Of a DNA stretch of 64,000 bases, positions 24,118 to 33,395 are shown piece after piece; positions within the stretch are counted from its first letter, which is position 1; every line of letters starts with the position of its first letter. The notes under the pieces are model-generated. The model did no database searches and had not been told where the DNA came from. It saw only the letters and a program-made list of their open reading frames with translations. Made by a program: the position numbers and the translations under genes. This stretch comes from Escherichia coli (GTDB lineage Bacteria; Pseudomonadota; Gammaproteobacteria; Enterobacterales; Enterobacteriaceae), in the NCBI RefSeq assembly GCF_003019035.1, contig NZ_CP027447.1, one strand, 5' to 3'.

Positions 24118-24894
24118 TCACCAGTCAAAACTTTTCACCAGCGTCAGCTCGCCAGCATTACGCATCGGTACAATAAATGTTTCCTGTTTCTCATTGACCG
24201 ATCCTTCATCGGTGATCAGCGTCAGTTGGGCGGTGGTTAATTCCGTTTCGCTGCGTCCGCCATAGTAGTTGATATACACCTGATAGCGCCCGTGAACTGG
24301 CGCTGGCATGGCGAAAATCTCGGGGCCGTACCCCGTCGTGACATCCATATCCAGTGCACCACTGTTGTTCAGCACGGTGTTACCGTACCAGGCGTGTTCG
24401 CCATCGGGCGTAACAACGTGAAGGTCGAGGTCGGTATTGTCCGTATCCCACGAGAGAACCAGCCGTAAACGTGCACGAATCGTTCCTGTACCCGGCGTTG
24501 AGTAAAACTGCATTTTTTGCCGGCTTTGCCCATCCGGGCTGATGACCTGCACGCTGTTGCTGCCTTCAGTGAAAATATAAGGGCGTGCAAATGAACCATC
24601 GGATTCAATTCTCTGCGGCATACTGGCACCGTTGACCACCAGCCGGCCCTGCTGAACTTTACCCGCCGCAGCATAATTCTTTATTTTGCCGCGGATCTGC
24701 GCTGAGATATTTTGATCATCTGCCATGTTGACGGACGACGCCGGGTAATTGATCGATTGTGAAAAACTGGCATCTTCGCCCTCTGCCGGATGCCAGCCAG
24801 AGAGCGGTGCATCAATCTCGACTTCCTGCACACCTTCACTGTGAGCGACAGGCGAAAGCGCCACCAGTAACAACGGAAGAAAAATCTTTCGCAT
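24118..24894 (-). CDS. yfaP: YfaP, secreted protein of unknown function (DUF2135-type), last gene of the alpha-2-macroglobulin operon
   Basis: 258-aa ORF with signal peptide MRKIFLPLLLVALSPVAHS. Confidence 0.85.
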   Translation of the reverse strand: MRKIFLPLLLVALSPVAHSEGVQEVEIDAPLSGWHPAEGEDASFSQSINYPASSVNMADDQNISAQIRGKIKNYAAAGKVQQGRLVVNGASMPQRIESDGSFARPYIFTEGSNSVQVISPDGQSRQKMQFYSTPGTGTIRARLRLVLSWDTDNTDLDLHVVTPDGEHAWYGNTVLNNSGALDMDVTTGYGPEIFAMPAPVHGRYQVYINYYGGRSETELTTAQLTLITDEGSVNEKQETFIVPMRNAGELTLVKSFDW

Positions 24895-24898
24895 AGCA

Positions 24899-26548
24899 TT
24901 AGTCCATTAATAATTGTCGGGTCAGCGTTTCGATATAGTTCTCATCAAGCCCGGTGGGATAACCATCAAAGGCCAGGTGCAGATACTCATGGGTTAAATC
25001 CAGCCGATCCTGAAGCGTAAAGAAGTTACGAATAAACAGCCGTTTCTGCTGCCGATCGGTATAGGGGAAACCTGAGACTAAACGACAGACCGCAAACACG
25101 TCTGGTTCGTTGTAGCCCGTCTCGCCTTGCAATATACGCCGCCACTGCGGCATTTTTTTCGCCAGCCAGGCTTTCGCTTTGGGTAATAACTGACAGGTTG
25201 AGCGTGGCGCTCCCCAGCGGCTAAGGCTGTTATCGGGATAAGCAAACGCGAGTATCTGGTCGTAACGCTCTCCCTGCCCCGCCTGGGCCGTGGCTTGCCG
25301 CCAGGAAAGCGTCCCTTCGGTAGCGCGACTGCCGTGATAATGAACCGGATCGCCCGCATAGATAAGATCCTGCGTCCAGGCGGTCATCGTTCGCGCCCCC
25401 GTGGTAGCTGGCGAAGCAGAAACACGCTGCGTGGCGCTGCTGTCAGGGATGGTCAGGCAATCGCCTTCCCGATTGGCATTTTGCTGTAAAAAAGTGCGTA
25501 TCGCCACGGTCATGGCTTTCGCTGCCTCAGGTGGCGTACTTTTCGCCTCACGATCCAGAACTCTGGCAACGTACTCTTCACGATCGAGATGCGACTGCAA
25601 TTTCAGTTTGCCCTTTTCGGTCAGTAAGGTCGTCTCACCGTGGCTGACAAACGTAATGTGGTTACCATTGGCAAACGTCACACGATAGTGCCCATTAAGT
25701 ACGCCGGGTTTTACTGCCGTCGAACTCTTTTCCGCCGTGATTTTCTTCAGCGGATAGCGGGCAAACAGCTCCACCAGGACACATTGCCCACTGGCAACTT
25801 GCGTCGGCACTGGCAAAACCCGATTAAGCACCGTCGCATAACGGGTCAGTACCGTTTTGCTGGTGCCACTGCCAGTCACCCACAGCGGTGTACCATCGGT
25901 TAACCAGCCGGCAAAACCACCCTGACGGATTTCCTGTTTATCATCGGCAAACCAGCTCCAGGTTTTCACCCGTACCCGACTACCGAGCATGGATGCGACA
26001 CCGATTTTCGCCTCGTCCAGCACCACATCCAGTAAGACTTCCTGAGCTTTGTTTTGCGCAGGTAACGTCGCTAATGAATCAAGCAGCGATTTAACCGTTA
26101 CCGAGGTTTCTGGCTTCAGCGTAGTAAGAGACGCTAACCACGCAGGTGCCTGACGCTGTTGCCAGTATTGCCCCCACACATCTGCGCCAATATGCAACCG
26201 CTGCGGCGCAAAATAGAGCCCACAGGAACGTACCAGCGCGGTATCGCGCGTTATACTCTCCCCAGCCTGACAACAATAAACCTCTTCCGGGGAGTTTCCG
26301 CGACACTGGTAGGGCTGCTCCGGTTGATGGGTATCCTCCAGCCAGGCGTAAACATACAGTTTCCATAAACTCCCTAACGGCGTGGTGAGCGTGTCAGGTA
26401 ATGCCGAGACTTTGGTCACGCCTGATGACGACAGCTGATACAGTTGATCGTGCTGCGCGCCCCGCAGCGCCAGTTGTAACGGCGTCTCCTCCGCAAGCGT
26501 TGGCAGAGTAACCAACGCCAATAGCCAGACGATTCTGCGCCAGTTCAC
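24899..26548 (-). CDS. yfaQ: YfaQ, secreted protein of unknown function (DUF2300-type)
   Basis: 549-aa ORF with signal peptide MNWRRIVWLLALVTLPTLA; 4-bp gap to yfaP, abuts yfaS. Confidence 0.85.
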   Translation of the reverse strand: MNWRRIVWLLALVTLPTLAEETPLQLALRGAQHDQLYQLSSSGVTKVSALPDTLTTPLGSLWKLYVYAWLEDTHQPEQPYQCRGNSPEEVYCCQAGESITRDTALVRSCGLYFAPQRLHIGADVWGQYWQQRQAPAWLASLTTLKPETSVTVKSLLDSLATLPAQNKAQEVLLDVVLDEAKIGVASMLGSRVRVKTWSWFADDKQEIRQGGFAGWLTDGTPLWVTGSGTSKTVLTRYATVLNRVLPVPTQVASGQCVLVELFARYPLKKITAEKSSTAVKPGVLNGHYRVTFANGNHITFVSHGETTLLTEKGKLKLQSHLDREEYVARVLDREAKSTPPEAAKAMTVAIRTFLQQNANREGDCLTIPDSSATQRVSASPATTGARTMTAWTQDLIYAGDPVHYHGSRATEGTLSWRQATAQAGQGERYDQILAFAYPDNSLSRWGAPRSTCQLLPKAKAWLAKKMPQWRRILQGETGYNEPDVFAVCRLVSGFPYTDRQQKRLFIRNFFTLQDRLDLTHEYLHLAFDGYPTGLDENYIETLTRQLLMD

Positions 26549-31168: not shown

Positions 31169-31710
31169 GTCATAAGTTGTTGCAGACTGACTGCGCGCAT
31201 TCCGTTGTCAGTTTTCGTGGCGCTTCCGGTGTGGTAGATGACGTAACGCCCCATCCAGACCATTAAGTGCTGGGCATCGCCCTGATCGAAAAAAATCATA
31301 TCGCCAGGCAGCGCCTGGTTTATGTCCTGGCCAATAAATTGGCTGTTGTACTGAATCAAATTAATCGCGGTCACATAGGGGCCAGTTTTTCCGTTCCCAT
31401 GATTCCAGTTTTGCGCCAGTTGACGCTGTTCAGGTGTTAGCGTCATTTCAGGCGGCAAATATTGACTTGCTATACCGTTACTTTTTAGCCATTTGCTGTC
31501 GTGAATTTTCAGCGCCTCGTTCGCCGAAAATCGCACCAGGCCCGCACAATCCTGCTGATACCAGCGCGGACTTGGCCCCTGGCGGAGCTGTTCCTGTGCA
31601 ATGCGTACAAACCACGCGCGAAACAGCCCGGATTGTTCGACATTCAGCATTTCGCTATGGGCAACAACACAACACAGCCAGCAAATCAGCGCCAGCAGTC
31701 CGTGCCTCAT
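31087..31710 (-). CDS. yfaT: YfaT, secreted protein of unknown function (DUF1175-type)
   Basis: ORF track starts at 31737; the ATG at 31710 gives 207 aa [19 protein letters not shown]... (signal peptide) and overlaps the yfaA stop as ATGA. Confidence 0.8.
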
Positions 31711-33395
31711 AGCGGCTGCCAGGTTATGGGTAGCCACTGCCAGGCGGCACCGGGTTCCATCTGTGCCAGCTTCATGACATAACGCGGTTGTTGAGATAAA
31801 GCGTCCAGCTTCGGCATTAATAAAGTTTGTGCGGCATTATAAAAAACCGGTTCGAGATTCTTCGGCAAACTGGTCAGTGTTTCGTTACGCAGCAGTTTCG
31901 CCACGCCTTGTGGATTGATATAGAGCGGAACGATGCCGTCAGTGGGTATCACATCCACCATTGCCGGGCGGGTTTTATTCAGTGTTTGCAGCGCGTTATT
32001 AACCAGCGTGTCATCGAGGGAGAAAAGCAGCGTTTTGTTTTGCATCGCCAGCGACACGCGGAAAAAATAATCCGACATTAATTGATCGGGTTGCGCCGCC
32101 TGCGCTTTCGGATACTGGCCGTATCGGGAACTCACTTCGCGACGCCAGATTTGCGCTTCGCCCTGCTGAGTCCGGTTTACCGGCAAAACACCTTCTGGCG
32201 CTTTGCTTTCGTGCGCACCAATATTTTGCGTAAACAGTTTTCCTGGCAATTGCACTTGTTCGGCAGAACCATCAAACTGACCGACAAACAGCGGAGTTTG
32301 CAATTTTGAATCTTCATACCAGCACAGCCCCGCGCCACCGTCTAACGCCCCGTTGAGCTTGTCGTTTTCCTGGCTGATGTGGGAAAGCATCTCTTCAGCA
32401 ATACCATGTGAATAAGGCACCGCCACACAGAAGCTGGCCCCTGCAGGCATACTGTTCCATACCGGCGTAAAATCGAAACTGGCATCTACGCTTGCGGATT
32501 CATCATTTAACGCTAGAAAACTGTGCCAGCCGTCGTTGCTCATTTCGAAGCGTACGCCAGCAAAAGAAGGCATTAATCGCTGGTAGCCAAACCCCAGCAA
32601 CCTGGCGCTGACCACGATGCGCTGGCGTACTGGCGTTTTTTCAGCAGCACGCTCTTCCAGGCCAAAGCTGGCTTGCCAGCGTTTTTTACCGCTCAACAAA
32701 TCACTTGCGATCGCCGTGGCTTCGGTATCCTGCTGATCATCTTTAAACAGCATATCCGTGCTGGAAAATACCAGCATCTTGTCCTGATAAGTTGCGAACA
32801 TCAGGGCGTTATTGCCGTTATAGCGCAACTGATAAACCGGGATGGTTTCACTATTTAGCTTAATACTACTGATTTCCGTTTTACTTAACTGGCTGTCGCT
32901 GGTAGCGGCAAACAGCAATGGCTCCAGCAGCTTGCTTAAACCACTGCGCTGGATCAGCACCATATAATGAGAAAGATGGCCTTGTTTATCGTGCCATAGC
33001 GCCGCCTGCGCGGGCTGATCTAAGAGTGACGAAAAGAGCTTATCTTTTAGTGTGAGATCGTGTTCGTAGACAATGCGGCGAATGCTGCCTTCAATGCCCA
33101 GACGATCGGCATGATTCTGATAATAGAAAACGAAATCTTCACTCAGAACATCGTGGAGAAACGGAATGGTAAGGAGGTCTTTGGGAAGCTGGCTCAGAGA
33201 GTCGCTGTCGAGAAAGAGGTCCGGCTCATTGAGATCGATTTGCAGATTGTTGTGCACCACCAGCGGCGACAACGTTTTTTCTGGCCCACTGCCAGCATAT
33301 TGCAACGCCCAGACGCCAGCGGAAAGCAGTACTATTGCGCCCAAACCTACAAGACCATAGAACCGCCAGCCTTTCGCCTTTTTTTCACCACTCAT
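31707..33395 (-). CDS. yfaA: YfaA, protein of unknown function (DUF2138-type), first gene of the yfaATSQP operon
   Basis: ORF track starts at 33437; the ATG at 33395 is preceded by an AAGGAA Shine-Dalgarno and gives 562 aa [24 protein letters not shown]... (N-terminal TM/signal anchor). Confidence 0.8.

Follow-up and report, generated by a model that had tools for sequence, protein, structure and literature searches.

Two forms of bacterial alpha-2-macroglobulin (A2M) have been described. Type I proteins, such as ECAM/YfhM of Escherichia coli and Sa-A2M of Salmonella, are lipoproteins that trap covalently through a CLEQ thioester and have pbpC, encoding PBP1c, as their partner gene. The type II class is described in the literature as being without a thioester, and its closest described representative is encoded by the magABCDEF operon of Pseudomonas aeruginosa (PA4492-PA4487). 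Here, the yfaA-yfaT-yfaS-yfaQ-yfaP operon of E. coli is compared with both. It was analysed in a stretch of 64,000 nucleotides (RefSeq assembly GCF_003019035.1, contig NZ_CP027447.1), which is referred to throughout as the window.

The P. aeruginosa macroglobulin, MagD, is found in the periplasm, in association with the inner membrane (PMC3735191). It is cut in its bait region, then retains the protease non-covalently, and forms 1:1 complexes with MagA, MagB and MagF (PMC5764988). Signal peptides were reported for MagC, MagD, MagE and MagF, one transmembrane helix for MagB, and a paralogous relationship for MagA and MagF (PMC3735191); MagB is the sole Mag protein with such a helix and tethers MagD to the inner membrane (PMC5764988). 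In vivo, MagD is processed from 165 to 100 kDa in a manner that requires MagB and MagC and is altered without MagE; the partner proteins stabilise MagD, and MagC and MagE gave no stable complexes with it (PMC5764988). Reports on MagE placed it in the cytoplasm, without stable binding to MagD, and discussed it as a possible chaperone; neither of the folds predicted below for its E. coli counterpart was mentioned (PMC3735191, PMC5764988). The operon is part of the GacA regulon, and magD confers protection from VgrG3 and Tae1, two type VI effectors that target peptidoglycan; the other mag genes were described as important for MagD folding and stability (PMC12663445).

Identity and organisation of the yfa operon

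Five genes, all on the minus strand, are packed end to end between positions 24118 and 33395 of the window (Table 1). A preliminary description of this region had named them as a co-directional cluster, and the open reading frames, Pfam assignments and junctions read from the sequence bear out both the arrangement and the gene identities. As had been described, yfaA and yfaT share an ATGA overlap, the GTG start of yfaQ directly follows the TAA of yfaS, and 4 nt (tgct) separate yfaQ from yfaP. Of the 65 to 82 nt then given for the yfaT/yfaS overlap, the larger value stands for a start at ATG 31168, and the smaller should read 67 nt, for ATG 31153. This overlap is a function of the chosen start, on which annotation pipelines disagree, and falls to zero with the RefSeq GTG at 31063. 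RefSeq annotates the genes as yfaA (DUF2138), yfaT (DUF1175), “alpha-2-macroglobulin family protein,” yfaQ and yfaP.

Relatives of YfaT were gathered by a scan of one genome per species, which found 216, and the loci of the best 80 of these were compared by tblastn with the five window proteins. The best 80 comprise Escherichia, Superficieibacter, Enterobacillus, Yersinia alsatica, Edaphovirga, Methylobacter and ∼70 Pseudomonas species. The order A-T-S-Q-P was observed in all 80 loci, with yfaA leading the cluster throughout the Enterobacterales. An additional YfaP paralogue, lying upstream and resembling magA, was seen in Methylobacter and, wherever the upstream sequence was long enough to show it, in all Pseudomonas loci; tblastn gave no YfaP-like match ahead of yfaA in the window or at any of the loci of Escherichia, Superficieibacter, Enterobacillus, Yersinia and Edaphovirga. 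Of the two Pseudomonas copies, the downstream one shares 50-60% identity with YfaP and the upstream one 37-45%. Given that the gene order, the upstream YfaP paralogue and the domain families all fit the published magABCDEF operon, YfaA is assigned by sequence comparison to MagB, YfaT to MagC, YfaS to MagD, YfaQ to MagE and YfaP to MagF, in the same gene order, and the window is assigned the five-gene magBCDEF-like form, without magA, of the type II A2M operon.

The likeness to the P. aeruginosa operon thus covers gene order and domain families, and it extends to the proteins themselves: YfaT is 66-76% identical to its Pseudomonas homologues and the other four proteins about 43-58%, and the two systems have in common the lack of a lipobox, the bait sequence NRSER, an anchor protein that crosses the membrane once, and predicted signal peptides on the other proteins. 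Several differences were noted. The Enterobacterales loci have no magA ahead of the gene for the anchor, GVIN occupies the thioester position in the window as opposed to GVEQ or CVEQ in most aligned Pseudomonas homologues, the favoured yfaS start is displaced 63 nt into yfaT, and the genomic neighbourhood (gyrA and atoB in E. coli) is not the same. The Pseudomonas operon is regulated via RetS/GacA/RsmA. The E. coli operon is an already known kind of system. Its function had been called essentially uncharacterised in the preliminary description; this cannot be maintained, since published biochemistry, a MagC structure (7BK8) and a type VI phenotype exist for the orthologous P. aeruginosa system.

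Individual searches were consistent with these assignments. YfaA matched DUF2138 in Pfam (5.8e-286) and PRK11410 in NCBIfam, which was informative for YfaA only; a single-sequence search of the PDB gave chance-level matches (E of 0.33 or worse). YfaT matched DUF1175 (5.6e-58), weakly NlpC/P60 (1.3e-3), and, over residues 21-206, the crystal structure of P. aeruginosa MagC (PDB 7BK8; E = 4e-102). YfaP matched DUF2135 (5.6e-17), and returned nothing in a single-sequence PDB search and nothing significant in a profile-against-PDB search. The PADLOC defence models gave no match for YfaA, YfaT, YfaQ or YfaP.

Export signals were assessed by eye and hydropathy only. Short hydrophobic N-terminal stretches end at AHS-E in YfaP, TLA-E in YfaQ and AHS-E in YfaT (the hyphen marks the end of the stretch). 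A hydrophobic helix near the N terminus of YfaA (residues 12-34) would be its membrane anchor. Signal peptides had been proposed earlier for every protein but YfaA, which agrees with the hydrophobic N termini of YfaP, YfaQ and YfaT; for YfaS, the proposal holds only when translation begins at one of the upstream ATG codons, and fails for the RefSeq GTG.

Domains, thioester site and bait region of YfaS

Pfam recognised MG2 (4e-19), A2M_BRD (6.7e-17), A2M (4.2e-12) and bMG10 (9.9e-6) in YfaS. A profile of 23 operon homologues matched the solved structures of ECAM/YfhM (2.3e-13) and Salmonella A2M (1.5e-11); a single-sequence PDB search gave only weak MG2-level similarity to C5 and CD109, with ECAM undetected. 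The likeness to type I proteins is one of architecture, with multiple macroglobulin (MG) domains, a bait region, A2M, a thioester-domain segment and bMG10. By contrast, none of the three type I features (lipobox, CLEQ thioester, adjacent pbpC) was found at the yfaS locus: YfaS has neither a lipobox nor CxEQ, and its partners are YfaA, YfaT, YfaQ and YfaP.

The profile aligns the thioester segments of the two types, with YPYGCLEQTAS in ECAM set against a family consensus of YPYGGVEQTAS. No CxEQ motif is present anywhere in YfaS, the mature form of which has one cysteine, and the remnant of the site reads GVIN. In 8 of 22 aligned operon homologues (Methylobacter and seven Pseudomonas), G-C-V-E-Q is kept at the segment aligned to YfaS residues 1066-1076; the others have mostly GGVEQ or CGVEQ, with one GGVEH, and those of Enterobacterales have GGV(I/V)N. 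The series looks like a stepwise loss of the thioester from CVEQ through GVEQ to GVIN. Because eight homologues keep G-C-V-E-Q, the label “thioester-less” is not universal for this operon type.

The core of the bait region matches the MagD sequence, ANRSERG, that was exchanged for a tobacco etch virus (TEV) protease site in the published trapping experiment (PMC5764988). Around it, the segment PGxxNRSERxVKxLERPRRE(E/D)VDTA (28550-28640; YfaS residues ∼840-870) is almost invariant from Escherichia to Pseudomonas. The baits of broad-spectrum macroglobulins are normally variable, and the near-invariance observed here hints at one specific cutting enzyme.

Predicted folds and conserved residues of YfaQ and YfaT

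YfaQ gave two DUF2300 matches and a short SpoIID match in Pfam. An AlphaFold model computed from a 23-sequence alignment had a mean predicted local distance difference test (pLDDT) score of 80.5, and Foldseek returned serine beta-lactamases and BlaR1 sensors with a probability of 1.00. The N-terminal part of the protein (residues ∼20-245) is predicted to be serine beta-lactamase/penicillin-binding protein (PBP)-like and the C-terminal part (∼255-549) SpoIID-like. Two independent fold searches underlie the beta-lactamase/PBP-like assignment; the fold searches give no residue ranges, and the domain boundaries were read from the secondary structure of the model. At the level of sequence, a profile-against-PDB search with the E limit raised to 10 found only SpoIID (E = 0.2) and a single-sequence PDB search found nothing, and a phmmer search of 1.84 billion representatives with the N-terminal domain gave 164 relatives, none linking to beta-lactamases.

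Both DUF2300 matches are strong (residues 84-205 and 412-532), each to the whole Pfam model. An internal repeat, which the pairing might suggest, was unsupported (hhalign probability 0.2%; BLASTP E = 0.73), and the Pfam seed may mix the two halves of YfaQ. No discussion of the DUF2300 fold was found in the literature searched.

Across 64 full-length representatives of the YfaQ family, which are 28-49% identical to the window protein, 38 of 549 positions (7%) reach 95% conservation or higher, among them G59-S60-x-W62-K63, S108-C109, K195-T196, R333-E334 and H520-E-x-x-H524. In the model, S60 is placed at the N terminus of a helix and K195-T196 on a strand, which would be the canonical places of the SxxK and KTG motifs, and the motifs are 48 and 135 residues apart, as in class D enzymes. 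The third motif is K-T-W/F/Y, in which an aromatic residue replaces the glycine of K-T-G. YfaQ therefore differs from class D beta-lactamases and the BlaR1/MecR1 sensors in this motif, and has no detectable sequence homology to beta-lactamases or PBPs. It differs from class D beta-lactamases/BlaR1 and the SpoIID/SleC lytic transglycosylases taken together in having an extra invariant HExxH, and in fusing both domains in one protein that is found only in this operon type. In YfaT, none of C55, H70, H148 and H160 varies among 81 sequences; DUF1175 is classed as an inactive peptidoglycan binder (PMC10318531, citing Zouhir 2021).

These features make it possible, and we put this forward tentatively, that YfaQ/MagE is an active peptidoglycan enzyme or sensor with Ser-Lys, SpoIID-like Glu and HExxH metal sites, that the Cys-His residues of YfaT are also used, and that the operons would be self-contained “trap plus wall-repair or wall-sensing” modules. 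If the prediction for YfaQ is right, a further likeness to type I systems would follow, in that each pairs a macroglobulin with a protein of penicillin-binding fold (PBP1c in the one, YfaQ in the other).

The same residues bear on a different explanation, in which the operon would be purely a host-protease inhibitor or colonisation factor: YfaS alone would act, and its partners would fold, anchor or stabilise it without any of them acting on peptidoglycan. MagD does trap protease in vitro and is stabilised by its partners (PMC5764988), the other mag genes have been called important for its folding and stability (PMC12663445), and MagC falls in the class termed inactive (PMC10318531). However, the magD phenotype is directed against peptidoglycan-degrading effectors, including the lysozyme-like VgrG3, and not against proteases as such (PMC12663445). 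Furthermore, the SxxK, S, KT, SpoIID-type Glu and HExxH positions of YfaQ are among the 7% most conserved of a family with 28-49% identity, and the Cys/His residues of YfaT are kept in every sequence; conservation of this kind in YfaQ and YfaT would not be expected of passive chaperones. On account of this motif conservation and the type VI phenotype, a pure host-protease inhibitor is considered unlikely.

Alternatively, YfaT, YfaQ or both could be dedicated processors of YfaS that cut the bait-like segment as a controlled activation step, and not wall enzymes. A bait that hardly varies between Escherichia and Pseudomonas, in contrast to a broad-spectrum one, would suit such a role, as would the papain-like Cys-His fold of YfaT, the HExxH motif of YfaQ, and the observations that the 100-kDa form of MagD is absent without magB or magC and that processing is altered without magE (PMC5764988). 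Set against this, MagC and MagE formed no stable complexes with MagD (PMC5764988), MagC is stated to bind peptidoglycan (PMC10318531), and the predicted folds of YfaQ resemble peptidoglycan-directed enzymes and not proteases. Dedicated processing of YfaS is judged quite improbable, and a wall-directed YfaQ remains the preferred reading.

The start codon of yfaS

The only in-frame starts upstream of the putative YfaS signal peptide are ATG 31168 and ATG 31153, both of which lie inside yfaT. From either, YfaS would begin with a hydrophobic core that ends at ANA-DD and has no lipobox. From GTG 31063, the start given by RefSeq/PGAP in both annotated genomes inspected, SCU-301 and a K-12, the product is 1504 aa long with no hydrophobic core and no signal peptide. 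A GGAAGGA sequence lies 6 nt ahead of ATG 31153, and translation from this codon yields a protein of 1534 aa, the length of the UniProt entry. ATG 31153 is judged the more plausible start because a periplasmic macroglobulin would need a signal peptide and no start other than the two upstream ATG codons supplies one. A RefSeq model of YfaS without its signal peptide would mislead predictions of localisation.

Conservation of ATG 31153 was rejected as evidence for its use: this codon and the GGAAGGA sequence sit in codons for the invariant C terminus of YfaT, TWKDTRWIP, and both yfaS ATG codons are kept in nearly all related loci for that reason. Most homologues from Pseudomonas, Yersinia and Edaphovirga have an ATG that shares 4 nt with the end of the preceding gene and from which a compact signal peptide begins. 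The corresponding triplet in Escherichia is ATA, and its favoured yfaS start lies 63 nt further upstream.

Distribution, the K-12 nonsense codon and selection

Over the 9.6 kb compared, the sequence shows 100% identity to the human commensal E. coli SCU-301 and ∼97.3% to K-12. Matches to the locus were found in 5425 of 5426 complete E. coli genomes, with at least 80% covered in 5178; in 247 of the 5425 matching genomes, no single place covers at least 80% of it. It is a core E. coli locus, and the window shows its normal wild-type state. The match in NZ_CP074998.1 is split over two places, with the DUF1175 gene, and not yfaA, listed under the main place, and that in NZ_AP043617.1 consists of 50 bases only, beside atoB. 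Such split and short matches show that the locus is occasionally disrupted or deleted in nature.

Re-translation of 26549-31168 revealed no internal stop or frameshift, so that the 1539-codon yfaS frame reported in the preliminary description is uninterrupted. The statement there that yfaS of K-12 is a pseudogene was also accurate: RefSeq flags an internal stop in a K-12 genome, and an MG1655 gene list splits the gene into yfaS_1 and yfaS_2 (PMC4448311). An ungapped comparison with K-12 gave 112 substitutions, no insertions or deletions, and one nonsense change. This sole lesion, TGG to TGA at codon 1373 of the 1539-codon frame (W1368 when counted from ATG 31153), truncates YfaS upstream of the C-terminal bMG10 domain. 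Alleles were counted with 55-mers centred on the variable base, every 28-base seed being required to include that base. The TGA allele was found in 364 of 5426 complete E. coli genomes and the TGG allele in 5009; among the matches listed, all 25 TGA carriers are K-12 laboratory derivatives, for example W3110, MC4100, C600, XL1-Blue and DSM 498. Given these counts, an intact yfaS is the wild-type norm, and the value once placed on the window as a full-length template lapses, intact copies being present in thousands of genomes.

The ratio of nonsynonymous to synonymous substitution (dN/dS) against K-12 is 0.08-0.12 for all five genes and 0.076 for the neighbouring atoB, which indicates purifying selection on all five genes between this strain and K-12. 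Within Escherichia species, gene order and junctions are kept down to 88-97% protein identity. In Escherichia albertii NBRC 107761, a stop at codon 345 interrupts the yfaA orthologue, and the other four genes are full length, at 88-97% protein identity; yfaA of this type strain looks like a pseudogene.

Several observations would fit the view that in Escherichia a Mag cluster, once acquired horizontally, is now silent or decaying and has little present function. The canonical start of yfaS has been lost and its thioester site is fully degenerate; a simple promoter scan found no sigma-70 consensus promoter in the gyrA-yfaA spacer; yfaS of K-12 and yfaA of the E. albertii type strain carry internal stops; the 247 E. 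coli genomes noted above lack a place covering 80% of the locus; and the cluster is scattered in Enterobacterales, with Salmonella enterica reported to have only one of the two A2M forms (PMC5764988). Against these stand the purifying selection, at a level like that of atoB, a 4.6-kb yfaS frame that is open here, with codon 1368 intact in 5009 genomes, and the preservation of gene order and junctions across Escherichia. A decaying remnant therefore seems very doubtful as a description of this operon, and a functional Mag-type system is the reading carried forward.

Flanking signals and neighbouring genes

Terminator-like hairpins were found on both sides of the operon (Table 1), and the gyrA-yfaA spacer (33396-33543) folds unusually well (z = -5.7). 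Rfam identified no RNA family in 23900-33700. The ribosome-binding region of yfaA, ACAAGGAAUGU, contains a GGA motif similar to CsrA/RsmA sites; RsmA regulates the mag operon of Pseudomonas.

Elsewhere in the window, three genes that K-12 lacks lie between gyrA and ubiG (36600-40079). They encode an enolase-superfamily (mandelate racemase-like) enzyme, a major facilitator superfamily (MFS) transporter and a frameshifted GntR regulator, and G+C drops to 0.39-0.41 at 36500-38000. The eco gene, for the periplasmic protease inhibitor ecotin, is at about 1344-1832, ∼22 kb from the operon, a proximity that is probably coincidence.

Table 1. Coordinates of the yfa genes and associated features in the window
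Feature	Position	Strand	Description and basis
yfaA	31707..33395	-	562 aa; DUF2138; predicted N-terminal membrane anchor; assigned MagB orthologue
yfaT	31087..31710	-	207 aa; DUF1175; NlpC/P60-like; assigned MagC orthologue
yfaS	26549..31168 (open reading frame, 1539 codons); 26549..31153 (1534 aa from ATG 31153)	-	type II alpha-2-macroglobulin; assigned MagD orthologue
yfaQ	24899..26548	-	549 aa; GTG start; DUF2300; assigned MagE orthologue
yfaP	24118..24894	-	258 aa; DUF2135; assigned MagF orthologue, MagA paralogue
yfaS start region	31063..31168	-	candidates ATG 31168, ATG 31153 and GTG 31063; sequence reading, RefSeq
Bait-region core A850-TNRSER-R857	28583..28606	-	matches published MagD bait ANRSERG, residues 847-853 (PMC5764988)
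Thioester-site remnant G1069-V-I-N1072	27938..27949	-	profile alignment; C-x-E-Q in thioester A2Ms
Codon W1368 (from ATG 31153)	27050..27052	-	TGG; TGA in K-12; ungapped comparison with K-12
Hairpin between yfaP and atoB	24057..24078		terminator-like, between convergent genes, T-runs on both sides; sequence reading, hairpin scan
Two hairpins, gyrA stop to yfaA	33467..33524	-	terminator-like, at 33507-33524 and 33467-33496; conserved in Escherichia species

Discussion

Taken together, we consider it reasonably probable that the E. coli operon is a periplasmic envelope-defence module of the five-gene Mag form, in which a trap would be held at the inner membrane, YfaT would provide a link to peptidoglycan and YfaQ would be directed at the wall. 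The present analysis contributes the gene identities, orthology, thioester loss, bait conservation and conserved motifs, together with the fold predictions; the trapping of proteases, the assembly of complexes, the binding of peptidoglycan and the type VI phenotype come from the literature on the orthologues and are inferred for E. coli, as is any activity of YfaQ.

In the proposed mechanism, YfaS would be exported through a Sec signal peptide, most plausibly after translation from ATG 31153, and would be held at the inner membrane by the single-pass YfaA (MagB) and by YfaP (MagF). An intruding hydrolase would cleave the conserved bait, ATNRSERR, whereupon the cut YfaS would change shape and cage the enzyme non-covalently, its thioester having been replaced by GVIN. 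YfaT (MagC, NlpC/P60-like) would tie the complex to peptidoglycan. YfaQ (MagE), and possibly YfaT, would act as a peptidoglycan-directed enzyme or sensor, YfaQ with its inferred penicillin-binding-like serine and SpoIID-like sites. The operon might thereby join a trap to the surveillance or repair of the wall, in much the way that PBP1c accompanies type I A2Ms. A wall-directed role for YfaQ would agree with the protection from peptidoglycan-degrading type VI effectors that has been published for P. aeruginosa.

A number of points weigh against this proposal. The Mag-type roles are known from measurements in P. aeruginosa and would be carried over to E. coli by homology, and Escherichia lacks MagA, one of the three partners of MagD in Pseudomonas. 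Since Escherichia has no stop-overlapping ATG, export of YfaS would hang on an unusual start 67 nt inside yfaT; no sigma-70 consensus promoter was found upstream of yfaA, and two terminator-like hairpins separate it from gyrA. The near-invariant bait of YfaS is unlike the variable baits of broad-spectrum A2Ms. The folds of YfaQ are predictions from a 23-sequence alignment, with no sequence-level link to beta-lactamases and a third motif that is not K-T-G, and the reported cytoplasmic location of MagE sits badly with a periplasmic peptidoglycan enzyme.

Given that the mag family has been studied for over a decade and that the operon is annotated in E. coli genomes, the finding of the cluster itself adds little. 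The main gains are a K-12 null allele as a genetic handle, the problem with the RefSeq start, the series of thioester decay, and the predicted enzymology of YfaQ/MagE, the domains of which offer a testable lead on how a macroglobulin complex without a thioester could protect the cell wall. If YfaQ does act on the wall, mag-type operons would be the functional counterpart of the type I A2M-PBP1c pair, and there would be a mechanistic reason for the protection that mag confers against peptidoglycan-degrading type VI effectors. A single TGG-to-TGA change makes K-12 naturally null for yfaS, and screens based on K-12 are therefore uninformative about the yfa/Mag system; wild strains, or a one-base repair of K-12, would provide a clean test of a role in type VI protection in E. 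coli. Should the proposal hold, a single nonsense codon in K-12 would have hidden an envelope-defence system from decades of E. coli genetics.

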